The notes under the pieces are model-generated. The model was not told the origin of the DNA, searched no databases, and worked only from the letters and a program-made list of their open reading frames with translations. Positions 21,418 through 57,594 of a stretch of DNA of 64,000 nt are shown here, one piece after another; the first letter of the stretch is position 1; the number at the start of each line of letters is the position of its first letter. A program made the position numbers and the translations under genes. Source of the stretch: an uncultured Clostridia bacterium (GTDB lineage: Bacteria > Bacillota > Clostridia > Christensenellales > CAG-917); assembly GCA_934277615.1 (NCBI GenBank), contig CAKQUV010000001.1, positions 206,380 to 270,379 on the forward strand. Direction: 5' to 3'.

Positions 21418-21503
21418 AAAGGAGCGCAATGCGTTCCTTTTGGCGCTTCGACGTGGTACGCCTCAACATAATAAAAGGAACGCGATGCGTTCCTTTTGGC
21501 GCC
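21418..21503 (-). repeat. direct duplication of the tRNA 3' end plus terminator hairpin
   Basis: Minus strand: GCGCCA+aaaggaacgcatcgcgttccttt (21474-21503) is repeated as GCGCCA+aaaggaacgcattgcgctccttt (21418-21446). Confidence 0.6.
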
Positions 21504-21623: not shown

Positions 21624-21818
21624 GAATTTTTAGCAAACTGTCTTTGAAAAAGTTAACGTTTTCTAAACATTGCTATAGTTTTCATTATATATATTAAGGC
21701 ACTATATTATTTAACGCCGTTTTCTGTCTTATTATATCGCAAGGCGTTTTTATACGTTTAATACTTATTTAACATTTGTATGTTTTTATATTTAAAACTC
21801 TTGATAAGGAGGGATACT

Positions 21819-22493
21819 ATGGAAAAAGAAAAGGATATTAAATATGTTCCCAATATCGAAACGCGGCATAGGCACAACATTTTGAAAATGCCGGATTGTA
21901 TCAGGAAGGCAAGCGGAATCGTTATATACGGAAGGCGCATAAAGAGCATTGTATTCACAACAGATCTTGCGATTATCCGCAATTGCGACGCAGACGCTGT
22001 ATTTGCGGTGTACCCTTTCACTCCACAACAAGTGATAAGCGACGCAATTATAAAAGCGTCATATATTCCCGTATTTTGCGGCGTTGGCGGAGGAACAACA
22101 AAGGGCTTGCGCACAGTGGCAATCGCAAAAGACGTGGAGTCGCAAGGCGCTATGGGAGTTGTGTTGAACGCCCCTATTTCAGATCTTAACCTTGCTGCGG
22201 TTGCATTGGGTGTGGATATTCCTGTTATCATAACCGTTGCAAAAGAGGACACGGATATACAAGCAAGACTTGACGCAGGCGCGACGATTATAAACGTTGC
22301 GTGCGGCACGGACACGCCTCGCATTGTGAAGAAAATCCGAGACGATTTTCCTAATATCCCGATAATCGCATCGGGCGGAAAAACAGAAGAAAGCATACTC
22401 CAAACAATAGAGGCAGGAGCAAACGCAATCACATATACGCCGCCCTCTACACAAGAACTTTTTAAAGAAATGATGAGCAAGTATAGAGAATAA
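21819..22493 (+). CDS. uncharacterised alpha/beta (TIM-barrel-like) protein
   Basis: Start at ATG 21819 with AAGGAGGG RBS (the ORF track begins at 21780). 224 aa with alternating beta-alpha pattern and Gly-rich phosphate-binding-like loops (FCGVGGGTTKG, IIASGGKTEE). Function not recognised. Confidence 0.6.
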   Translation: MEKEKDIKYVPNIETRHRHNILKMPDCIRKASGIVIYGRRIKSIVFTTDLAIIRNCDADAVFAVYPFTPQQVISDAIIKASYIPVFCGVGGGTTKGLRTVAIAKDVESQGAMGVVLNAPISDLNLAAVALGVDIPVIITVAKEDTDIQARLDAGATIINVACGTDTPRIVKKIRDDFPNIPIIASGGKTEESILQTIEAGANAITYTPPSTQELFKEMMSKYRE

Positions 22494-25263: not shown

Positions 25264-25464
25264 GTCATTTCGAGCGTTAGCGTGGCAATCAAGGCGTAAG
25301 CCGCACACATAAAGCAAACGATATAGCGAAATTGTGGTAAGAGCTTTATCCTTGTTTGAACTGATAGCGTGTATCGGTTGCGCGGTAGAAGTTGCGAAAA
25401 CAAATACAATAAAGGGACTGCTATTATTATTGCAGTCCCTTTGTAATTATGCCGTTTGAGCAAC
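25264..25464 (+). repeat. family-B element, copy B1 (conserved core plus variable long hairpin)
   Basis: Core gtcatttcgagcgttagcgtggcaatcaaggcgtaagccgcacaca...cgatatagcgaaattgtgg...ctgatagcgtgtatcggttgcgcggtag (25264-25388). Then the nested hairpin gttgc...aaagggactgc-tattattat-tgcagtcccttt...gcaac. Confidence 0.75.
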
Positions 25465-28446: not shown

Positions 28447-28476
28447 GGAATATTTCGCAATTATTAATTATTAATT
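28447..28476 (+). repeat. 30-nt repeat ggaatatttcgcaattattaattattaatt (copy 1)
   Basis: 29/30 identical to 56189-56218. Ends 5 nt from the parB stop codon. Confidence 0.8.
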
Positions 28477-28481
28477 AATTT

Positions 28482-29381
28482 TTACAGTTTATCGTTATAC
28501 TTCAAGATTTGGACGAGAGCGTAAATTCTGTCAAGGTCGTCCTTATTGAAGTAGTCGATTGTGATACGACCTTTTTGGTCGTTACCAACAAGTTTGACCT
28601 TGGTTGCGAAGATGCGTTTCATATCGCCGACAAACTCTTTGAGTTCCAAAGACATAACGCCTTTTTCTCTCGGACCTGACGGAATGGCTTTTCTCGTGAA
28701 GTACAATCTTACACGGTTTTCGAGGTCGCGTACGGAAAGTTTGTTGTCGCAGGCTTGTTTTGCAAGCGTAACAAGATATTCTTTATCGTCAATCGAGATA
28801 AGCGTTCTTGCGTGTCCGGGGGAGAGCTTGCCTTCTCTGACGAGCTCGGTAACTTCGTCGGGGAGTTGCAAAAGTCGCAATGTGTTGGTTACGTACGGAC
28901 GAGATTTGCCAATACGGGATGCAACTTCTTCTTGAGTGAGCCCGTGATTTTCCATAAGTTCGCGCATACCTTCCGCCGCTTCGATTGCGTTGAGGTCTTC
29001 GCGGTGCAAGTTTTCGATGAGCGAAATCTCTTGTATTTGTTGCGGAGTAAAATCTCTGATGATTGCGGGCACTTTTTTAAGACCTGCGAGAAGGCTGGCT
29101 CTGAAACGACGTTCACCTGCGATGATGAGGTATCTTCCGCCCTCGCTTCTCACCAAAATAAGCGGTTGCAAAACGCCGTATGTGGCAATTGACGTAGCCA
29201 TTTCTTTGAGGCTGTCCTCATCGAACGTTTTTCTCGGCTGATTGGGGTTGCGGTCAATGAGCGTGATATCGATTTCTTGCGCTACGATATCGTCGGAGAT
29301 ATCCACTTTTACATTTTCTTCATTGTCGTTGAAAAGTGCGTTAAAGCCTTTGGAACCAAGTCCGCCTTTTGTATTTGCCAT
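28482..29381 (-). CDS. parB: ParB/Spo0J chromosome partitioning protein
   Basis: 299 aa. ParB box LQPLILV...YLIIAGERRFRA, HTH GLTQEEVASRIGKSRPYVTNTLRLL. AAGGAG RBS. The start lies 3 nt downstream of the parA stop codon (29385-29387). Confidence 0.93.
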   Translation of the reverse strand: MANTKGGLGSKGFNALFNDNEENVKVDISDDIVAQEIDITLIDRNPNQPRKTFDEDSLKEMATSIATYGVLQPLILVRSEGGRYLIIAGERRFRASLLAGLKKVPAIIRDFTPQQIQEISLIENLHREDLNAIEAAEGMRELMENHGLTQEEVASRIGKSRPYVTNTLRLLQLPDEVTELVREGKLSPGHARTLISIDDKEYLVTLAKQACDNKLSVRDLENRVRLYFTRKAIPSGPREKGVMSLELKEFVGDMKRIFATKVKLVGNDQKGRITIDYFNKDDLDRIYALVQILKYNDKL

Positions 29382-31938: not shown

Positions 31939-32367
31939 ATGGAAAAGATAACGTCGTTTACAATCGACCACAACGTGCTTAAAAAGGGTTTTTACCTCAG
32001 CCGTGTGGATAAAAACGTGTTTACATACGATTTGCGCTTTAAAGAGCCGAATAAAGGCGACTATCTTCATATGGCTGCAATGCACACTATAGAGCATTTA
32101 TTTGCCACTGTTGTGCGCAACAGCGCGTATAAGGATAAAGTTGTGTATTTCGGCCCTATGGGCTGCAGAACGGGCTTTTATTTGCTTTTGTTCGATACGG
32201 ACAAAGATGAGGCACTCGCGCTCACCAAAGAGTGCGTCGCAAAATGCCTCGAACTCGATACGATCCCCGGTAGCAAGAAAATCGAGTGCGGAAACTACCG
32301 CTCTCACAACCTTGCCGGCGCAAAGAAAGAATTGTCCGAATATCTTGACGTCCTCAACACCCTGTGA
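31939..32367 (+). CDS. luxS: S-ribosylhomocysteine lyase LuxS
   Basis: 142 aa. Metal site HTIEHL and GCRTGFY. Confidence 0.93.
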   Translation: MEKITSFTIDHNVLKKGFYLSRVDKNVFTYDLRFKEPNKGDYLHMAAMHTIEHLFATVVRNSAYKDKVVYFGPMGCRTGFYLLLFDTDKDEALALTKECVAKCLELDTIPGSKKIECGNYRSHNLAGAKKELSEYLDVLNTL

Positions 32368-32483
32368 AACAGAGCTGAGTTGATATCTATATGTAAAAAA
32401 GTTTGTGTGCCGATATATTGTAATAAATCAAATACGAGTTTAGTGATAAATACTCATAACATAACATTTAAAAACGCACGGAT

Positions 32484-32515
32484 AACAGGTTGACGAAGCG
32501 TCAGCCTGTTTTTTC
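32484..32515 (+). terminator. intrinsic terminator after luxS
   Basis: aacaggttgacg-aagc-gtcagcctgtt followed by tttt. Confidence 0.7.
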
Positions 32516-32924
32516 ACTTTTACAATGAGTTATATTTCAACAAAACGAAAAAATAATAGTTTATAAGTAAACTATTATAACATATATAAACATATTGAAA
32601 TAGTGTGATAAACAGGGAAAACTCAGGTACATAAAACAATACGTGATTTTGATAATTGCCGAATATGGGTAAATAGTGTAAATAGTGTAAATAGCATGAA
32701 TATGTAAAAAAATATTGTGTTAAGTATAAGAAGGCTTAATTTGAATTGTAAATAGTAATTCATAGGTATAATTGTAATAATGTCATATTTATAAAGTGCC
32801 GATATTGCGGTCTGATAAGAATATATAAATAGACGGAGTGATTTAAACAAAGAGAGAAAAGCATATACTCACCGCCATTCTGTTTGTGATTAATTATGAT
32901 GATTTTTTGACATTTATCTCATAT

Positions 32925-32940
32925 TGTTTCACGTGTAACG
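32925..32940. promoter_or_regulatory. parS-like site tgtttcacgtgtaacg
   Basis: 14/16 match to the Firmicute parS consensus TGTTNCACGTGAAACA. Confidence 0.6.
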
Positions 32941-33051
32941 TATAGAAAAGCAAATATCAAGTTTCTACGAAATAAGCAAAATTATTAAATAAAAGCGTGC
33001 CGAGGTTTTAACTAAACTCGATACACTTGCTTTTATATTTGCGATTTGTAT

Positions 33052-33719
33052 TTATATATTATACCGAGAAATCGTTCGATGATATTCGTATATCGTATAC
33101 GTTGCTTTATAGTGATGTTGCCGATTATCTATCCGAGATTTGGCTCGATAATCGAGTAATCTCCCATTATCGTTCCATTCGCCGTACATAATACCCTTCC
33201 TTGTATTCTCGACAAATTTTGCCAGTCGTGATTGATAAAGTTCGAGTCGATGTTTGTTGAATTGAATTGTGTCTATTCTCACTCTTTGATATAGCGGCGG
33301 AAAACTCAAAAAGTTTTGCCACACAACGTTATCTGATTGCAGCAGGATTAATATATCTTGATTTATAACAAAACCACTCTCTGACATATCCGGTAACGCA
33401 GCTCTTCCGCTATCCGTCATAAGGCCGAGCTTCTCAAGCCTTCTGCAACGCTCATTATTAAGTTCTGTCCGGTTGCTGTTTTTCTACGCTTTGCAAAACG
33501 CTGCGCGGTGCTAGTATCCGATATTTTCTTTTGGGTGCTGTCAATCCAACCAAAGCATAGGGCTTCTTCAACCGCATCAATATACCAAAACGTAGTGCTA
33601 TCTGTAGGGCGACCTCTTTTAACTATTGCCCGGCATTCGTTTTCTTTCGAGTGATTATCCGTAAGCCACCCTCGGAACTCATATCTATTTTTGACGTTAA
33701 GCAAGTTTATTGTTTCCAT
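33052..33719 (-). pseudogene. YdeI/OmpD-associated family gene split by a 1-nt frameshift in an A5 run
   Basis: ORFs 33417..33719 and 33052..33420 encode the N and C halves of one YdeI-like protein. The second frame already reads KNSNRTELNNERCRRLEKLGLMTDSG upstream of its ATG. An A6 in place of the A5 (rc of 33479-33483) would restore a single ORF. Confidence 0.7.
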
Positions 33720-33785
33720 ATGCCGATTATACCACTATATATCGGAGTGGTCAATATTCCGCAAAAATCTATAAAAACGCAAAAT

Positions 33786-33801
33786 TGTTTCACGTGTAAC
33801 G
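33786..33801. promoter_or_regulatory. parS-like site tgtttcacgtgtaacg
   Basis: Same 16-mer as 32925-32940. Embedded in a 24-nt perfect direct repeat attgtttcacgtgtaacgtataga. Confidence 0.6.
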
Positions 33802-33870
33802 TATAGAGAAAATAGGCTAAACTCATACTAAATAGTAGAAGAGTAGCATGTTTTTGTGCATTAATCAAAA

Positions 33871-33888
33871 TGTGGATAATATGGATAA
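33871..33888. promoter_or_regulatory. two tandem DnaA boxes
   Basis: TGTGGATAA (perfect complement of TTATCCACA) is immediately followed by TATGGATAA (8/9). A further AGTGGATAA lies at 34021-34029. Confidence 0.55.
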
Positions 33889-34197
33889 TGATCAAATTGC
33901 GGGTAGAATTATATAATTTGATTATTACTACTTAGCATCTAATTGCAATTATTAGTCGGTGTTATTTTGACGATATTCAATCGTACTATAACAACCGCAA
34001 TATCAATAATTTACGTGTATAGTGGATAAACAATTATTGCCTCAAATTGAGAATAAAAACAAAGGCAAACATCACTAAAAACTGTATAAATCGAGATAAA
34101 AGCGCAACGAGAGCATGCGGTGTTTGATTGAAAGTAATAATAGTGATATGAGTGATAATATGGTGTGTTTATCGGAGAAATCGATGTAAAACGTCTA

Positions 34198-34213
34198 TGT
34201 TTCACGTGTAACA
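34198..34213. promoter_or_regulatory. parS-like site tgtttcacgtgtaaca
   Basis: 15/16 match to TGTTNCACGTGAAACA. Confidence 0.7.
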
Positions 34214-34230
34214 ATTTGATTTTCGAACCC

Positions 34231-34246
34231 CGTTTCACGTGGAACG
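34231..34246. promoter_or_regulatory. parS-like site cgtttcacgtggaacg
   Basis: 14/16 match read on the complementary strand (CGTTCCACGTGAAACG). Lies 17 nt from the previous site. Confidence 0.65.
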
Positions 34247-34743
34247 AAAACATCTGAAAACCCACTATTTAGTGGGGTTTTAGGCTGTTTTTGCTACCCA
34301 AAAAATAATTTTTGGTCTTTCACCATGTAAATTTTGACAGAAAAATTTTCGACCTTTCACCCAAATTTTTCGGCATAAAATGTTTCTCGATTTTTATAGA
34401 AAATTTTTACTGTTTCACACTGTTTCTATTGTTTGTATCTATGTTGTGTTTTTCTATATGATTCTTCTAGTGAAATCTTCTGTAATCTATAGTGATAAGT
34501 GCTGATTTTACCTGTTATTAATCTCTATTTTTCTATGCAATTTGATATTGAAGTATTGTTTACTGCTTTGTGTTTTGCTTGATGATGTACGACATAAACG
34601 GATAAATGCACTCATTTTTTCGTATCTCGTAATTCGCTTTTACAATATGATTATTAGGGTGTTTTTGATTTTGTTTATATTCTTTTGTATGCATAAAACA
34701 AGCAAAAACGCCGCTAAATAATGCGGCGTTTCACGGAAAACAA

Positions 34744-34761
34744 ATTTTCCACTTATCAACA
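34744..34761. promoter_or_regulatory. 18-mer attttccacttatcaaca (TTATCAACA is a DnaA box with 1 mismatch); second copy of the dnaN-upstream 18-mer
   Basis: 17/18 identical to 23890-23907. Confidence 0.45.
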
Positions 34762-34931
34762 CGTCAATGTCGGCTCAAACGGTTGAATTTCTATCGTTTT
34801 AGAGAAAAACATTATAAAACAGTTTACAAGTAAACATATGTACTTTCTTGTTTTTATACTTTTTGTCTTTTTTACGGTATTTTTTATTGCTCACAAAGAT
34901 CGATATTTGCCATTGAAAATTACTTTTTCTT

Positions 34932-35627
34932 TTATCTGAGTTGCATATATGTTGCTATCAGGAAAAGCATCGGACCTACAAGTACAAAAACGTGGAATAC
35001 GCAATGGACGTAGCGTTTATGCACACCGAAGAGCAATGCGCCTATAAGGCAGGATATCAGTCCAAAGAGATAAACAATGCTGGTTGCTAGCGGTATACCC
35101 GTTTCGCTGAAATACGCCGTGAAGAACGCGGCAAACATCAATCCGCCTATAACGAACGTCGAGGCAACTGACACTTTGCGGAAGATATCGAAGCGGACTT
35201 GACAAAGTATGAATATCAAAAGCGCAATTACAAGCGACGCGCCGAGCGCGACATAGCCGTATATGCTGCCGTACATGAGGCATGTTGCCGTTGCGCAGGC
35301 GATCACGTTGAGGTTGACGGCAGGGAAATCCACTTTGCGCCAAACAAGCTTACGTTTTAAATCCGTAACGCCGTGATACGTTGCCGACACGGCAAATTCG
35401 ATTGCTATAAATGCGCAGGACAACACAGCGCTTGCGTATGCGGCAGGAGTTGTGGCTTTTATGAGCATAAATATCATAAAAATCAGCGCAAAAACCGTGC
35501 CGAAAGCGTGCGTCGCGACGTTTATCAACTCTTCCTTGGGTGTGTAATACACGAGTTGATTTTGCTTGTACACTTCCTTCAATTCGTCGGTGTTGTCCGG
35601 CGTTTTCAATCTTTCTTTCAAATCCAT
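34932..35627 (-). CDS. hemolysin III / PAQR family membrane protein
   Basis: Seven hydrophobic helices. N-terminal EELINVATHAFG motif and C-terminal HVFVLVG. Start set at ATG 35627 (231 aa); the ORF track extends to a GTG at 35723. Confidence 0.8.
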   Translation of the reverse strand: MDLKERLKTPDNTDELKEVYKQNQLVYYTPKEELINVATHAFGTVFALIFMIFMLIKATTPAAYASAVLSCAFIAIEFAVSATYHGVTDLKRKLVWRKVDFPAVNLNVIACATATCLMYGSIYGYVALGASLVIALLIFILCQVRFDIFRKVSVASTFVIGGLMFAAFFTAYFSETGIPLATSIVYLFGLISCLIGALLFGVHKRYVHCVFHVFVLVGPMLFLIATYMQLR

Positions 35628-42373: not shown

Positions 42374-42587
42374 GTCATTCCGAGGAGCAACGAATGTTGC
42401 GATGTGGGAATCTAGGCGTTAGCCGCACACACCAAGCAAGCGATATAGCGGAACTGTGGTATGAGTTTTATCCTTGCAAGACTGATAGCGTGTATCGGTT
42501 GCGCGGTAGTAAAGCAAAAATCTAACGTGGCACTTGGCAATACACACAAGTGTGTGTTGCCATTGCCACAGTGACGATTTTTGCTTG
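42374..42587 (+). repeat. family-B element, copy B2 (core plus long hairpin)
   Basis: Core gtcattccgaggagcaacgaatgttgcgatgtgggaatctaggcgttagccgcacacaccaagcaagcgatatagcggaactgtgg...ctgatagcgtgtatcggttgcgcggtag (42374-42509). Then agcaaaaatc...gtggca..tacacac-aag-tgtgtgt..tgccac...gatttttgct. Confidence 0.8.
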
Positions 42588-45806: not shown

Positions 45807-46060
45807 TCGGAGACGGAACTTCGAGCCGCAAGGCGGCGAGCCTGTCGAGCGTCGAGGTAGACGGAATGTACAAGCGACTGCGCCGTGTTGTTGCGTAGCG
45901 GGCGCACAAAGCGCGTGGCATAATGAGTGTACGATACTTATCTATCCGAAGACCGAGTGTTGCCCCCCTGCGGAGCAGTTCCGTGGGTTCCCTCAAGCAG
46001 AGCGCAGAGGGGGAACGGAATAGGGGAAACACATGAGGAAGGGGGGGAAGGTGCATTTAA
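45806..46060 (+). repeat. family-C structured intergenic element, copy C1
   Basis: Starts at the last base of the ychF stop codon. Shares with C2/C3 the order cggag - hairpin gccgc-aag-gcggc (45825-45837) - gtacaag - hairpin tgcgcc-gtgttgtt...-ggcgca (45879-45906) - gcataat. Shares with C3 the block gtgggttccctcaagcagagcgcagagggggaacggaataggggaaacac (45983-46032). Confidence 0.7.
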
Positions 46061-46174
46061 AGAGTTACGACTACACTCTATTAGAACTGTAATCTCACGA
46101 AAAATTTGAGCGTGGCGGTCTAAAAAACTGTGCGCTTTTACTGAAATAATTAAAACAACTCATTTGGAGTAACT

Positions 46175-47860: not shown

Positions 47861-47985
47861 CGCCAAACGGCGAATAGCTTTGTCAAAGCCCCTTGAACAG
47901 CAACCCTAACGTACTAATGCGTACGTGAGTTGATGAACAAGGGGCTTTTGACGCGATTGACTCCGTAACAATCGCTATTAAACGC
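47861..47985 (-). repeat. family-A element, copy A3 (whole unit inverted)
   Basis: Stem aaagccccttg (47886-47896) / caaggggcttt (47938-47948) around caaccctaacgtactaatgcgtacgtgagttg, which is the reverse complement of the A core. The flanks ccaaacgg... and ...caatcgctattaa align to the reverse complement of the A1 flanks. Starts 4 nt after the argS stop. Confidence 0.75.
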
Positions 47986-48042
47986 GCTCTTCATCCGTTT
48001 GGACGGCTCTTTTTATAAAGTGCAGTCGTAAAACCTTAATGC

Positions 48043-48382
48043 AATAACCCCCTCTTTCCGGACACGCCGGTATGTCCACTTCGGCGTTTGCGCACCGCAA
48101 TCCGCCTTGTTCGCTTTGGCTACAACACATTCACCGAATGTGTCGCTTAACGCGTCGCGCCCGACCACTCGTATAGGGGGCTTCTATACAAAAGTGAACA
48201 TCGCTCGCGGGGGAGACATTTGGCACTCACATAGACAAGTATCGTTCACTTGTTATGCCACTCGTTCGCCAACGAAAAGAACAACACTCGTTGGCTCACT
48301 TGTACTAATCGTCAAGTTCGGCGCAAAAACGCTCGTCGCCTTGCGACTCGAAGCTCCGAATAAGCACATACCGTTAATAAGT
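48043..48382 (-). repeat. family-C element, copy C2 (inverted relative to C1/C3)
   Basis: The reverse complement shares with C3 aacggtatgtgcttattcggag (48354-48375), gtacaagtgagccaacgagtgttgttcttttcgttggcgaacgagtg and ccggcgtgtccggaaagagggggttatt (48043-48070). The middle part diverges. Confidence 0.75.
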
Positions 48383-48402
48383 ACGCTCCGAACAAGCTTC
48401 CG

Positions 48403-48678
48403 TTCGGGTGTGGGTGTCCCGCCCATATAGTCATTCCGAGCGAAGCGTGGGAATCAAGGCGTCAGCCGTACACACCAAGCAAGCGATATAGCGAAATTGT
48501 GGCGGGAGTACTTATCCTTGCTTGAACTGATAGCGTGTATCGATTGCGCGGTAGTAGAGCAATAAATCAAGCAAGGCTCTCGGCAATCGCCAAAAATATT
48601 CAAAGTTTGAGATTATATTTTTAATCAAAAATATGCAATTTTGGCGGTTGTCGTTGCCTCGGCGATGATTTTTGCTCT
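48403..48678 (+). repeat. family-B element, copy B3 (core plus long hairpin)
   Basis: ttcgggtgtgggtgtcccgcccatata + gtcattccgagcgaagcgtgggaatcaaggcgtcagccgtacacaccaagcaagcgatatagcgaaattgtgg...ctgatagcgtgtatcgattgcgcggtag (to 48554). Then the imperfect hairpin agagcaataaatc...ggcaatcgccaaaa...ttttggcggttg..gcc...gatgatttttgctct. Confidence 0.8.
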
Positions 48679-53150: not shown

Positions 53151-54983
53151 ATGCAAAATTTTGACGCTGTCGTAATAGGAGGCGGACACGCCGGTGTCGA
53201 AGCCTCGCTTGCGCTTGCAAGACTCAATAAAAAAACGCTTATGTTGTGCCTTGATTACGGCACTGTTTCTTTGATGCCTTGCAATCCTGCAATCGGCGGA
53301 ACGGCAAAGGGACATCTCGTCAAAGAGGTGGACGCGCTCGGCGGTCAGATGGGGCTTTCGGCAGACAAAGCGCTTCTTCAAATAAAAACGCTCAATTCGG
53401 CAAAAGGCCCTGCGGTGTTCTCGCTCAGAGGACAAGAGGACAAGGCGGTTTATCACGAACTTATGCTCGATATAGTGCGCAATCAACCCAACCTCACCGT
53501 GCTTGACAAAGAGGCAAGCGAAGTTGTGGCAAAGGACGGCAAAGTGTGCGCCGTGCGCACGACGGACGGTGAAGAGTACGCCTGCAAAGCGGCGGTGCTT
53601 GCCACGGGCGTATATCTCAACGGAGCGATAATCATTGGCGATTACGTCAAAAAGAGCGGCCCTAGCGGATTTGAAAGCGCAACTCATCTTACCGACAGCC
53701 TAAAAAATCTCGGAGTGCAAATGCGCCGTTTCAAGACCGGCACGCCTGCGAGAATTTATCGCGACAGCATAGATTTTTCCAAAATGGAAATCCAAAGAGG
53801 GGATGACAGCGACAGATTCTCCTTTATGTCGCCTCACGAGGTCTTTAAGGAAGAGCCGTGTTGGCTCACATACACCAATGCCCAAACACACAAGATTATA
53901 CTTGACAATATAGACCGTTCCCCGCTTTACAACGGCACCATTCAATCTGTAGGTCCGAGATATTGTCCGTCAATCGAAACCAAAGTTATGCGTTTCAAGG
54001 ACAAGGAAAGGCATCAGATTTTTGTGGAACCCGAGGGCGCTGATAGTGAGGAAATGTACATACAAGGTATGTCCACGTCCTTGCCGCACGACGTGCAAGA
54101 GCAGATGTACAGGACGTTGCCCGGGCTTGAGAATTGCCGCTTTGCCAAATACGGCTATGCAATAGAATACGATTGCCTTGATCCGCTCGGCATGTATCCG
54201 TCGCTTGAAAACAAAGCGGTGGAGGGGTTGTTCTCGGCAGGACAGATGAACGGCAGCAGCGGATACGAAGAGGCGGCGGCGCAAGGTCTTATCGCAGGTA
54301 TCAACGCGGCAAGAAAGATTGACGGCAAAGAGCCGTTTGTATTGCGCAGAGATCAGGCGTATATAGGCGTGCTTATCGACGACCTTGTTACAAAAGGAAC
54401 CAACGAGCCGTACAGAATGATGACCGCGCGCGCGGAACATCGCATATTCTTGCGCCAGGACAATGCTGACATGCGCCTCACCCCCATAGGAAGAGAGATC
54501 GGTCTTGTCGATGACGCACGCTATCAACGCATGCTTGACAAAAAGGCAATGATAGAACGCGTTATCGAGTTTTCATCCAAAACCATGTCCAGGGATATCG
54601 TTGAGGGCTTGTTTAACGAACTCGGTGAAGAGATGCCGCAAAAAACGCCCACGTTTGCCGAGATTTGCAGACGTCCGAGCGTGGAGGCGCAGCACTTGAG
54701 AAGATTTATCGATTTCGAGTGCGACGACGAAGCATTGAAGGCGGCGGCAATCGAACTCAAATACGAGGGCTATCTCAAAAAAGAGCAATCCGCAATCAAT
54801 GAGCAGAAGAGGCTGGAAGGCAAGCTTATCCCCAAAGATTTCGATTACAACTCAATCAAAGCGCTAAGGATAGAGGCAAGACAAAAGCTTTCCGAAATCC
54901 GTCCGCTCAATCTCGGTCAAGCGTCCAGAATATCCGGAGTATCGCCTGCGGACATCGCTGTGTTGATTGTCGCATTGCGATAA
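53151..54983 (+). CDS. mnmG: tRNA uridine 5-carboxymethylaminomethyl modification enzyme MnmG (GidA)
   Basis: MQNFDAVVIGGGHAGVEA FAD motif. 610 aa from ATG 53151 (the ORF track extends to a TTG at 53103). Confidence 0.95.
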   Translation: MQNFDAVVIGGGHAGVEASLALARLNKKTLMLCLDYGTVSLMPCNPAIGGTAKGHLVKEVDALGGQMGLSADKALLQIKTLNSAKGPAVFSLRGQEDKAVYHELMLDIVRNQPNLTVLDKEASEVVAKDGKVCAVRTTDGEEYACKAAVLATGVYLNGAIIIGDYVKKSGPSGFESATHLTDSLKNLGVQMRRFKTGTPARIYRDSIDFSKMEIQRGDDSDRFSFMSPHEVFKEEPCWLTYTNAQTHKIILDNIDRSPLYNGTIQSVGPRYCPSIETKVMRFKDKERHQIFVEPEGADSEEMYIQGMSTSLPHDVQEQMYRTLPGLENCRFAKYGYAIEYDCLDPLGMYPSLENKAVEGLFSAGQMNGSSGYEEAAAQGLIAGINAARKIDGKEPFVLRRDQAYIGVLIDDLVTKGTNEPYRMMTARAEHRIFLRQDNADMRLTPIGREIGLVDDARYQRMLDKKAMIERVIEFSSKTMSRDIVEGLFNELGEEMPQKTPTFAEICRRPSVEAQHLRRFIDFECDDEALKAAAIELKYEGYLKKEQSAINEQKRLEGKLIPKDFDYNSIKALRIEARQKLSEIRPLNLGQASRISGVSPADIAVLIVALR

Positions 54984-55003
54984 AATCAAAAATTTTAAGA
55001 CAA

Positions 55004-55031
55004 AAGCGTCAATCGGCGCTTTTTCTTTTTT
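55004..55031 (+). terminator. intrinsic terminator after mnmG
   Basis: aaagcg-tcaatcgg-cgcttt followed by ttctttttt. Confidence 0.55.
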
Positions 55032-55379
55032 GCAAAACAAATTAAAGACGCGCAAAAAACAATTTTGTTAAAAATACTTTGTTTGCGCAAATCGCTTATA
55101 TTTGATTTACTTAAAATCAACGATTGCAGCGGTTAGATATCCGAAAAATCGCATTTAAAATATCTTAAAACAGCACGTTTTCAAAAATACCCGCTTAGAA
55201 TGCCGATTTCAATAAAAACGGTGTTTTTTGCAGGTTTTTTCTTGCAAAAACAGCGTTTTGCAAACAATTCAAGGCGCAATTTTGCACAATTCTTGTATAA
55301 ATTGTTAAAAGTTTTTAAGGGTTTTGTAAAGAATTTTGCAAAATTTGAAAAAAAATATAAAAAAATTTACAAAAACCCC

Positions 55380-55408
55380 TTGACAAATAATTCTTTTGGG
55401 CATAATAT
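55380..55408 (+). promoter_or_regulatory. near-consensus orphan promoter with no downstream ORF
   Basis: TTGACA (55380-55385), 17-nt spacer, TAATAT (55403-55408). Preceded by a long A/T-rich tract. Downstream DNA up to 56226 contains only repeat modules A4, A5 and C3. Confidence 0.5.
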
Positions 55409-55511
55409 GTAAACGTAATCGGGAAACGAAAGGCTCCCGAACCAAAATAACTCATAATTTTCCCCCTTATCATAGCGAGCGACTTTGGGTGTATCACCCG
55501 AGGTCGTTTGC

Positions 55512-55640
55512 ATTTTATGGAACAAAACAGCAAATAACTGTGTCAGAGCCACCCGACCATCAACTCATTTACGATAAGTAAACTAGGGTTGCTGTTCGGG
55601 TGGCTCTTCCTTGTTCTTTATCCGTTTTGTTCCATAAAAT
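55512..55640 (+). repeat. family-A element, copy A4, with a 17-bp outer stem
   Basis: attttatggaacaaaac (55512-55528) pairs with gttttgttccataaaat (55624-55640). Inner stem agagccacccga (55545-55556) / tcgggtggctct (55596-55607). Core caactcatttacgataagtaaactagggttg (55561-55591). Confidence 0.8.
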
Positions 55641-55653
55641 ATTATCGTTTTCA

Positions 55654-55733
55654 AACTTTGTCAGCGCGCATTTTTCAAAAATCACGTACGCCAAGTACGT
55701 TGGGTTTTTGAAAAATTTTGCGCTTTCGCGTAA
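55654..55733 (+). repeat. family-A-like unit (A5) with A1-type flanks but a different hairpin
   Basis: aactttgtcag + gcgca-tttttcaaaaa-tc-acgtac-gccaa-gtacgt-tgg-gtttttgaaaaa-ttt-tgcgc + tttcgcgtaa. The flanks equal the A1 aactttgtcag / tttcgcgtta. Confidence 0.55.
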
Positions 55734-55794
55734 TATATCTCTTTGACGGCTTTATATTATGGCGTCATTAAGCGATATACTTCGTCAAAGTCTA

Positions 55795-56152
55795 CTTATA
55801 AACGGTATGTGCTTATTCGGAGTTGGAGGCGCAGGGCGCCGACCGCATCGAGCGCCAAGCTTGACGATAAGTACAAGTGAGCCAACGAGTGTTGTTCTTT
55901 TCGTTGGCGAACGAGTGACATAATAAGGGAAATGTCCCTATCTATGCGCGTGCCGTAAGGAGCGAAGCGACGGAATAGCGATTGCTACGAAGTCAATCGC
56001 GTCGCCTGTCCCCCGCTACGCGGTCGTCGTGGGTTCCCTCAAGCAAAGCGCGGAGGGGGAACGGCGATAGGGAAAACACCTTGAGGAAAGGGAAAATTGC
56101 ATTAAATATTTATTTTTATAAATGCCGGCGTGTCCGGAAAGAGGGGGTTATT
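55795..56152 (+). repeat. family-C element, copy C3
   Basis: Shares its 5' and 3' blocks with C2 and its 3'-central block (56029-56079) with C1. Hairpins ggcgc-agg-gcgcc (55828-55840) and gccaacga-gtgttgttcttt-tcgttggc (55881-55908). Confidence 0.75.
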
Positions 56153-56188
56153 CTATTTAGAGGAGTTATGACGCTCTTTATTTTTCAT

Positions 56189-56218
56189 GGAATATTCCGC
56201 AATTATTAATTATTAATT
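56189..56218 (+). repeat. 30-nt repeat ggaatattccgcaattattaattattaatt (copy 2)
   Basis: 29/30 identical to 28447-28476. Ends 8 nt from the glmM stop codon. Confidence 0.8.
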
Positions 56219-56226
56219 CATAATTA

Positions 56227-57594
56227 TTAATTTCCATTTTCCGTCATAATCCTCTTTATGTCCTCAAATATCATCTTGTATTCCGACACAAAGCACTCGT
56301 ACGTTACGCGGATGAACGGCTCTGTTCCGCTGGGGCGGACGATTAGGCGACCGCTGTTTGCGTAGAGGTTGTTGACAGCGGTGATTTTTGCTTGAAAGTC
56401 GTCGCTTATTATGGTTTGCGACGGGTTTTGAGCGGTTATATTGAATTCGAGCATGGGGTAGGGCGTGTATTTAGGCAGACTTCCGAGCGTGCGCTTGACT
56501 TCCAGAATGCTGAGTGCAGTGATAAGTCCGTCGCCTGTATTTGCTCTGTCGAGCATGAGGATATGTCCGCTTTTTTCGCCGCCGAGCAGACATCCTTGCG
56601 CATTGAGCGCGTCAAGAACGTGCTTATCTCCGACGTCCGTGCGTATGAGTGCAGTGTTGTGGTATGCAAGTTCCCTTTGCAGTTTCGTGCCGGTCAGAAT
56701 AGTGCCCACGACAAACCGCTTTTTGAGCTTTCCTTGCAGCCTGTACAAAGTGGAAAGAGCAAGCAACATAGCGTCGCCGTCGTATATTTTGCCGTCCACC
56801 ACGCCAAGCACTCTATCTCCGTCTCCGTCGAACGCAAAGCCGATTTCGTCTTTTTTCACACGTCGTGCAAACTCTTCTATATGCGTGCTTCCGCACCCGA
56901 CGTTGACCTTTTCTCCGTCTCGGAAATTATGCTCCGCGCACACCACCGCCCCGAGGGACATAAACACCGCAGGCGCAAGCGTGGCAAAGCACCCGTATGC
57001 GCAGTCCAGACGAATTTTGTATCCGTCAAAGCGCGGAAACATGGATTTTACATGCTTTGCATACAAAAATTCCGCCCCGTCGACAATGCGAATCCTATGA
57101 TTTTTCACGGACGGCGTAATGTGCAAATCGCTCAGAATCTCGTCCTCCGTCAGCGTATCTGCACACAAATCCTCGTACAAAAACGCCACGGATTCCTCTT
57201 TCGGATTGTTCATAAGCTCAAACACTGCGCTGTCCAGCACGCACTCTTCCTCGCTTGAGAGTTTTCTTCCGCCTTTGCCGAACACTTTTAGCCCGTTGAA
57301 TTCCGGCGGATTGTGCGACGCGGTGATCATAATCGCATAGTCGGCTTTTTGCGATTGCGCCGTATATGCGAGGGCAGGGGTAGGCAAAACTCCCGCAAGC
57401 CAAATCTGCGCCGAGCCTTCCAGCAACCCTTTGCACAGTTGCTTTTCTATATCTTGCGAGCTTTCTCGCACGTCGCGCGCGACAATCACCTTTCCGCCTT
57501 TTTGCGAAATAGCCTTGCCCAAAAAATACGGAATATCCGCGCTTATAAGCGTATCCGCTTTGTTTCTTATACCGTCTGTACCGAAATAATGCAT
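56227..57594 (-). CDS. glmM: phosphoglucosamine mutase (phosphohexomutase family)
   Basis: Start set at ATG 57594 (MHYFGTDGIRNKA...), giving 455 aa. Active-site loop ITASHNPPEFNGLKVF. The 534-aa ORF-track version runs across the trxB terminator and is rejected. No SD upstream. Confidence 0.8.
   Translation of the reverse strand: MHYFGTDGIRNKADTLISADIPYFLGKAISQKGGKVIVARDVRESSQDIEKQLCKGLLEGSAQIWLAGVLPTPALAYTAQSQKADYAIMITASHNPPEFNGLKVFGKGGRKLSSEEECVLDSAVFELMNNPKEESVAFLYEDLCADTLTEDEILSDLHITPSVKNHRIRIVDGAEFLYAKHVKSMFPRFDGYKIRLDCAYGCFATLAPAVFMSLGAVVCAEHNFRDGEKVNVGCGSTHIEEFARRVKKDEIGFAFDGDGDRVLGVVDGKIYDGDAMLLALSTLYRLQGKLKKRFVVGTILTGTKLQRELAYHNTALIRTDVGDKHVLDALNAQGCLLGGEKSGHILMLDRANTGDGLITALSILEVKRTLGSLPKYTPYPMLEFNITAQNPSQTIISDDFQAKITAVNNLYANSGRLIVRPSGTEPFIRVTYECFVSEYKMIFEDIKRIMTENGN

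Follow-up and report, generated by a model that had tools for sequence, protein, structure and literature searches.

The 1243-nt gene-free interval 54984-56226, between mnmG and the convergent gene glmM, was analyzed in a 64,000-nt stretch of DNA (the window) from an uncultured Clostridia bacterium of the order Christensenellales (assembly GCA_934277615.1, contig CAKQUV010000001.1, positions 206,380 to 270,379 of the forward strand). The promoter at 55380-55408 in this interval probably drives a small RNA (sRNA) of ~105 nt, directed against translation-initiation regions (TIRs), which would end before the repeats that follow; the repeats would not be part of the gene. A first-pass annotation of the same DNA had instead proposed an RNA of 0.2-0.8 kb running through these repeats. 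As now pictured, a stand-alone sRNA gene would be transcribed from near 55415 to an intrinsic terminator at 55475-55518, and its RNA would consist of a 5' stem-loop, an unpaired region of 24 nt and the terminator hairpin. The analysis established the anatomy of the gene, its conservation, the covariation of its terminator and the absence of a conserved open reading frame (ORF), and also that it is independent of the gene downstream. That the gene is transcribed, where exactly its RNA begins and ends, and that it acts on TIRs we infer from the sequence.

Promoter and anatomy of the predicted sRNA

Loci of GlmM relatives were collected and mnmG was located in them. Fifteen genomes, with GlmM proteins 64-95% identical, have kept mnmG and glmM in the convergent arrangement and are referred to here as the syntenic relatives. 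The length of their mnmG-glmM intergenic region ranges from 515 to 2480 nt. Alignment showed that only ~55190-55520 is common to all 15, the rest of the intergenic region not being conserved. The shared part comprises upstream boxes, an A-tract, the promoter, a 5' hairpin of which the pairing is kept while the sequence varies, the invariant sequence CTCATAATTTTCCCCCTTATCATAGC, and, ahead of TTTTAT, a long hairpin. The interval is identical in one other assembly, and a second strain differs from it at 13 positions, none of which lies inside 55380-55518.

The near-consensus promoter TTGACA-17-TAATAT (sigma-70 type, plus strand; -35 at 55380-55385, -10 at 55403-55408) had already been pointed out in the first-pass annotation. 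It is indeed the best promoter-like site in 54900-56300, with 10 of 12 matches in a promoter scan. The A/T-rich interval holds 11 promoter-like sites versus 3.7 +/- 1.9 in shuffles, and because of this roughly threefold enrichment the hexamer match alone is weak evidence. Conservation across relatives raises the promoter above chance. All 15 syntenic relatives have retained the -35, its spacing to the -10, the -10 itself (mostly TGnTAATAT) and, further upstream, the AAAAAAA-TTTACAAAAA tract; the form across their alignment is TTGACR-17-(TGn)TAATAT. Homologues in a wider collection were retrieved by an exact scan with the 20-mer core of the conserved motif described below, and the homologue counts used here (127, 119, 107 and 97) rest on the matches listed by that scan. 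A promoter with at least 9 of 12 matches was found 14-62 nt upstream of the motif in 121 of the 127 homologues. Judged from these comparisons, the promoter at 55380-55408 is genuine.

The long A/T-rich tract upstream of the promoter, likewise remarked on at first reading, is near-invariant among relatives. It has the form AAAAAAA-N-TTTACAAAAA (55341-55379, plus strand) and would seem to resemble an UP element. Alignments of relatives revealed further conserved boxes on the plus strand (55131-55231), GGTTAGA at 55131-55137 and TTAGAAT at 55195-55201, as well as a conserved GCCGATTT/AAAUCGGU hairpin with a T-run at 55202-55229 (plus strand), for which the form GCCGATTT/AAATCGGY was also noted. 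The boxes and the hairpin may serve for the binding of a regulator or constitute a tiny terminator of their own. TTAGAAT is present 200-260 nt upstream of the sRNA motif in ~25 loci, and the conservation of these TTAGA(A/T) boxes even where the upstream gene differs suggests that the sRNA promoter is regulated.

The product of this promoter appears to be non-coding, as had been proposed. No conserved ORF was found in the interval: every short ORF has stop codons in relatives and none matches Pfam. The small-protein reading was rejected on these grounds, the check for a conserved small protein in the interval having yielded none. A 70-aa gene annotated in public assemblies at 55200-55412 overlies the A-tract and the promoter and has stop codons in relatives. 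This ORF is spurious, which corrects the public annotation.

The predicted sRNA (~105 nt, ~55415-55518, plus strand) was delimited by the position of the -10 at its start and by the U-tract of the terminator at its end. Folding of the predicted RNA (55412-55522) gave -40.9 kcal/mol (z = -5.1 versus shuffles) and two hairpins with the 24-mer unpaired between them. The first of these, the 5' stem-loop UCGGGA...UCCCGA predicted by folding at 55419-55440 (plus strand), is the cggga...tcccg hairpin of the first-pass annotation. The hairpin proved to be real; it does not open a long RNA, as was then supposed, but would form the 5' stem-loop of a short sRNA. Of the clade members, 41 have 25 nt or more of 5' leader, and each of these has a 5' hairpin of 5 bp or longer, the sequences varying and the median z being -3.4.

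The conserved single-stranded 24-mer CUCAUAAUUUUCCCCCUUAUCAUA (= CTCATAATTTTCCCCCTTATCATA; 55451-55474, plus strand) carries an anti-AUG (CAU) and an anti-Shine-Dalgarno (anti-SD) element (CCCCCU). CAU, 7 nt and CCCCCU together occupy 55453-55468, between the hairpins 55419-55440 and 55475-55511. The predicted probability that the 24-mer is unpaired has a median of 0.89 in the clade members.

The intrinsic terminator (55475-55518, plus strand), identified by terminator scan and covariation, consists of a 17-bp stem (55475-55511) with a 3-nt loop and the tail AUUUUAU. The scan, independently of the alignment, ranked this hairpin (17 pairs, tail ATTTTATGGA) as the strongest in the interval. It is located ~100 nt past the predicted start, directly before the first repeat, module A4. 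When a MAFFT alignment of 83 diverse homologues was folded with RNAalifold, no consensus structure emerged, since their stems, unrelated in sequence, are out of register in it. An alignment-free terminator scan and a clade-level alignment were used as structure tests instead. The alignment-free scan found a hairpin plus T-run after the motif in 105 of the 107 homologues with distinct downstream sequence (among the matches listed). These terminators start ~4 nt past the motif and have a median of 17 bp and -25.4 kcal/mol, versus -5.3 when shuffled. In the alignment of 26 clade members the 16-bp terminator stem is paired in 98.1% of the cells versus 34-46% in slid registers; compensatory changes occur at 13 of the 16 pairs, and none of 500 shuffles reached the observed values.

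The covarying 17-bp terminator at 55475-55518 argues against the transcript of 0.2-0.8 kb proposed earlier, in which the promoter would make a long structured RNA across the modules, acting as a whole or processed into small RNAs. Such a transcript would agree with the hairpin-rich nature of the modules, with the imperfect U-tract of the terminator and with the A-type element found directly after the sRNA in 12 of the 15 relatives. However, the strong terminator lies ahead of the modules, whose number, type and order vary among the 15 relatives (three lack the A element), and the same modules are found at many unrelated loci. A long RNA is considered very unlikely.

Conservation and genomic context

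The 20-mer core of the 24-mer is invariant in 15 of 15 syntenic relatives, which were found via glmM and not via the motif. Of 42 genomes selected on GlmM similarity alone, at least 31 contain the exact 20-mer, as counted by hand from contig accessions. The syntenic loci and the GlmM-selected genomes form the unbiased support for conservation. The exact scan, with one genome per species, located the 20-mer in at least 119 species-level genome stretches, and CTCATAATTTTCCCCCTTAT is the sequence by which carriers of the sRNA gene can be recognised. Among the matches listed, the carriers are nearly all metagenome-assembled genomes (MAGs) labelled Christensenella, Christensenellales or Clostridia, and the motif is usually present in one copy per genome. 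Their habitats are human, mouse, rabbit, chicken and ruminant guts, and digesters. Carriers of the gene include the complete MAG chromosomes CP091723.1, CP091734.1 and OZ006985.1. In two genomes (L194, 4250-4518; L202, 6931-7361) the sRNA gene is duplicated in tandem, the two copies sharing the 20-mer and differing in their terminators. No divergent seed variants were found among the related loci examined, a degenerate scan of the wider collection not having been made. A phage origin was rejected, as only 2 matches were to viral contigs.

The genes surrounding the sRNA differ from locus to locus. Among the 119 loci listed, trxB is near in 44, mnmG in 32 and glmM in 20, and none of mnmE, mnmG, glmM, trxB and asnS is near in 61. 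In 69 of 97 loci (matches listed), as here, the closest gene downstream is convergent, and the sRNA is for this reason not regarded as a 5' leader. A cis-acting leader, of the riboswitch or attenuator kind, whose downstream gene has been lost would account for the resemblance of the promoter, structured leader and terminator to an attenuator. It would not account for the convergent downstream genes or for an RNA that remains constant while genomic contexts vary widely; moreover, no Rfam riboswitch matches and no alternative antiterminator pairing is evident. We hold this explanation to be extremely improbable.

It is also hardly credible that the 24-mer is a DNA site (Xer/dif-like, or an integration site) or that it codes for a tiny protein, despite its single copy per genome and a partial CATAA...TTATC symmetry. 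The layout is strand-specific, with the promoter always upstream and a terminator of variable sequence 4 nt downstream, and the locus lies ~20 kb from the DnaA-box cluster of the window and not at the terminus. Against a tiny protein stands the observation that ORFs on both strands are broken in relatives.

Proposed function and comparison with known sRNAs

The reverse complement of the 24-mer, UAUGAUAAGGGGGAAAAUUAUGAG, reads as a G-rich Shine-Dalgarno (SD) sequence, a 6-nt spacer and AUG. Because of this layout, trans-acting masking of initiation regions is the most likely function. The unpaired 24-mer would pair in trans with the TIRs of target mRNAs, and this pairing would block ribosome binding.

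Several observations weigh against the sRNA as pictured here. No complementarity of 15 nt or more to the 24-mer was found in 2.1 Mb of related loci, and an RNAduplex scan of the window yielded only generic SD-like sites, for example at 21786-21825. The invariant stretch of 24 nt exceeds most sRNA seeds and would also suit a protein-binding role. Part of the invariance among the 127 homologues follows from their retrieval by exact match to the 20-mer. The U-tract of the terminator is interrupted (AUUUUAU), so that some read-through into A4 is possible. In addition, the full complement of the 24-mer, GATAAGGGGGAAAATTATGAG, occurs nowhere else in the 64-kb window, and the initiation regions of trxB and glmM are not complementary to the sRNA.

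These data bear on the alternative that the sRNA binds or titrates a protein, for example an RNA chaperone or a regulator of translation that recognises the pyrimidine-rich 24-mer, rather than pairing with mRNAs. Both the length of the conserved stretch (24-25 nt, longer than a typical seed) and the lack of a complementary target in the 2.1 Mb of related loci and in the window fit a titrating RNA. The SD, 6-nt spacer and AUG layout of the complement would then be a coincidence, however, and each RNA carries the motif only once. Known titrating RNAs such as CsrB and RsmZ carry several binding sites. Protein titration is judged unlikely.

A similar build is known from the cia-dependent small RNAs (csRNAs; CcnA-E) of Streptococcus, in which an unpaired region with anti-SD and anti-AUG elements, located between two stem-loops, has been proposed to block ribosome access (PMC3091779). 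Like the predicted sRNA, csRNAs are ~90-150 nt in size, have two stem-loops flanking an unpaired CAU and anti-SD, and are encoded by stand-alone genes with a strong dedicated promoter and a variable genomic context. A block of translation initiation has been proposed or shown for the csRNAs, while for the sRNA described here it is deduced from sequence. There are clear differences as well. The two show no detectable homology in sequence or structure (no Rfam match at E up to 10), the anti-SD is CCUCC in csRNAs and CCCCCU here, and csRNAs occur as 2-6 paralogues where the present sRNA is usually single copy. The present sRNA also belongs to a different class of Firmicutes (Christensenellales), and its promoter lacks a CiaR-type TTTAAG-N5-TTTAAG repeat. 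A CiaR box just upstream of the -10 is absent; the only match has 2 mismatches and lies at 55314-55330, at a distance of 73 nt from the -10 on its upstream side, and CiaR-box matches across the window are at chance level.

RsaE/RoxS of Bacillales is a second sRNA of comparable build. It is a ~100-nt sRNA with wide taxonomic conservation, in which an unpaired C-rich motif pairs with G-rich SD sequences and which ends in an intrinsic terminator. The predicted sRNA resembles it in size, C-rich unpaired motif, terminator and broad conservation. RsaE, however, has at least two C-rich motifs and no anti-AUG, its conserved sequence differs, and no Rfam match was obtained for the sRNA described here.

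Rfam searches at gathering thresholds returned only a tRNA. In E-value mode no plus-strand match in the interval covers the sRNA unit, the hits being sub-threshold microRNA noise (MIR5638, 55470-55511, E = 3.1). Eight diverse homologous loci searched at E up to 1 gave no family match either, only microRNA-like hairpin noise. Literature searches by motif and by topic retrieved no paper that contains the motif or describes an sRNA of Christensenellales, and the motif is absent from the first 200 supplementary files of a human-microbiome structured-RNA catalogue. By its predicted layout the sRNA is of the csRNA/RsaE-like build, and by sequence it is a member of neither family. The family appears to be undescribed, though of a familiar kind.

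Christensenellales are a widespread and mostly uncultured gut lineage, and no regulatory RNAs of this order were found described in the literature searched. A single-copy sRNA with an invariant anti-SD/anti-AUG element would give a handle on post-transcriptional control in these bacteria, and its targets should become predictable once complete genomes are scanned. The conserved strong promoter and terminator pair could be used in genetic tools.

Dispersed repeats and neighbouring features

Dispersed, non-coding hairpin repeats have accumulated in the region 55512-56233, the convergent zone ahead of glmM. In related genomes each 20-nt bin of this region has matches at 11 or more unrelated loci, and all parts recur elsewhere in the window. 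The repeat modules seen behind the promoter in the first-pass annotation are thus borne out as repeats. The idea that they form a locus-specific long non-coding RNA is not, since they are members of genome-wide dispersed families.

Module A4 (55512-55640, plus strand) is a dispersed long-hairpin element with apex CAACTCATTTACGATAAGTAAACTAGGGTTG, recognised from its copies in the window. Its outer stem, noticed earlier as a perfect 17-bp pairing, is confirmed: ATTTTATGGAACAAAAC at 55512-55528 pairs with 55624-55640, and it reuses the U-tract of the sRNA. Module A5 (55650-55745, plus strand) is a variant of the A family with apex AAAATCACGTAC-GCCAA-GTACGTTGGGTTTT and without the outer stem. This apex type follows the sRNA in six loci (L119, L123, L126, L128, L133 and L137), and 55641-55760 has ~33-44 matches per 20-nt bin in other loci. 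The ctttgacg/cgtcaaag hairpin (55743-55795, plus strand) is present as described before, 55743-55750 pairing with 55785-55792. Within it, 55761-55789 is a fragment of the left arm of an A element; the corresponding arm of the A copy at locus L122 matches it at 100%.

The remaining modules were assigned no strand. Module C3 (55780-55955) is 82% identical to the reverse complement of 48222-48396 and has ~45-56 matches per 20-nt bin elsewhere. A 30-nt module (55974-56003) is 93% complementary to 47950-47979, a third (56011-56112) shares 78% identity with 45963-46067 and has ~18-28 matches per 20-nt bin in other loci, and a fourth (56122-56181) is shared, inverted, with 48015-48073 at 82-90% identity. 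An A/T-rich module (AATTATTAATTATTAATT..., 56182-56233), 89% identical to 28447-28484, overlaps the stop codon of glmM.

A second repeat mosaic is located upstream of rpmH at 47887-48557; there A, the 30-mer, C and further shared modules follow one another in another order. Since both order and orientation of the shared modules differ between this mosaic (47.9-48.6 kb) and 55512-56233, the modules are regarded as independent units and not as one RNA. A family of ~110 nt (GTGGSAATCWAGGCGT...) is found at three sites (47887-48557, 25282-25391 and 42404-42512 being listed) and is absent from 54984-56226. Contigs of the related MAGs L118, L120 and L121 end 9-445 nt after glmM, inside the repeat-rich interval. 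MAG contigs often break at this intergenic region, probably because dispersed repeats interrupt assembly.

The A family has the apex CAAC-TCA-TTTAC-GATTA-GTAAA-TTAGG-GTTG, and its core was found at more than 112 loci in related genomes, several per MAG. The consensus hairpin has 48 pairs, 35 of which show compensatory changes. At loci L001-L112, 60 of 80 A copies follow a co-oriented ORF that ends ~43 nt before the apex, and 13 of 80 face a convergent ORF; members of the family are mostly found immediately 3' of transcription units and in the sense direction. The outer stem is locus-specific sequence, at these loci often including the stop codon of the upstream gene. In 63 of 81 copies the outer 15-19 nt of the hairpin are an inverted copy of the left flank (mode 18), versus a median of 1 in a control with mismatched copies, and a minor class has an outer stem of 27-28 nt. 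For A4 the left flank is formed by the U-tract of the sRNA, ATTTTATGG. That A4 has a perfect outer stem of 17 bp is explained by this property, the outer A stem including an inverted copy of a pre-existing left flank. Three relatives without the A element represent empty sites (L127, L135 and L147), in which TTTTATGG is present with no CCATAAAA downstream. Of the 13 intergenic differences between the near-identical strains, those at 55529 and 55539 compensate each other, turning an A-U pair into G-C within a local hairpin of A4 (ACAG/CUGU); through the change at 55529 the outer stem of A4 also grows from 17 to 19 bp.

The modules share with REP/BIME, ERIC, BOX and Correia-type repeats, which resemble miniature inverted-repeat transposable elements (MITEs), that they are short, non-coding, hairpin-forming, multi-copy and arranged in intergenic mosaics, often just 3' of genes. 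Unlike these, A elements carry an inverted copy of 15-19 nt of their left flank as outer stem rather than a direct target-site duplication. No such direct duplication was found at A elements, the flanks forming an inverted duplication with a mode of 18 nt. The module sequences match no Rfam family. A bolder proposal combines both subjects of this study. The sRNA would act throughout the order as a master regulator of translation initiation, by means of an invariant anti-TIR element of 24 nt for which neither Rfam nor the searchable literature has a description, and it would stand beside A elements that insert exactly at the 3' ends of transcription units with a fixed-length inverted target duplication. 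We regard this combination as speculative and rather unlikely to hold in full. If true, it would imply for A elements an insertion chemistry that is not known to be described for bacterial MITEs.

The module block might also have a role of its own, passively as a spacer or additional terminator between the sRNA gene and glmM, or as a buffer or bidirectional terminator zone which shields glmM from antisense read-through and terminates glmM transcription; this would be compatible with the sRNA proposed above. The convergent orientation of the sRNA and glmM, the 9 terminator-like hairpins in the interval versus 1.8 expected, and the position of 60 of 80 A copies directly behind a co-oriented gene agree with such a zone. 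On the other hand, no canonical minus-strand terminator was found within 280 nt of the glmM stop codon, and two relatives (L135 and L147) have only ~100 nt between the sRNA terminator and glmM. The buffer function is a tentative suggestion, about which we are doubtful.

The window has a GC content of 46%. The interval is preceded by the gene run rpmH-rnpA-yidD-yidC-jag-mnmE-mnmG on the plus strand. The last gene, mnmG (GidA family, 53151-54983, plus strand), encodes a 610-aa product; GIDA Pfam families are present in the identical contig, and its orthologues are syntenic in the 15 relatives. The operon ends in an intrinsic terminator at 55002-55033 (plus strand), a 9-bp stem followed by TCTTTTTTGC. 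On the other side the interval is abutted by the convergent glmM-like phosphoglucosamine mutase gene (56227-57594, minus strand; 455-aa product with PGM_PMM_I-IV Pfam families), in agreement with the earlier assignment.

A reading of the A/T-rich tract as replication origin (oriC) was rejected, since DnaA boxes cluster at 32.0-35.0 kb and none lies in 54984-56226. The region 32000-35100 harbours this DnaA-box cluster, with two perfect TTATCCACA boxes and near-matches, in the lowest-GC stretch (36.7%) just upstream of gyrB and gyrA, and is likely to be the oriC region. Two 29-nt direct repeats (AAAGGARCGCRATGCGTTCCTTTTGGCGC) at 21418-21446 and 21474-21502, each a hairpin plus T-run, are located just downstream of the tRNA-Asn gene (minus strand).

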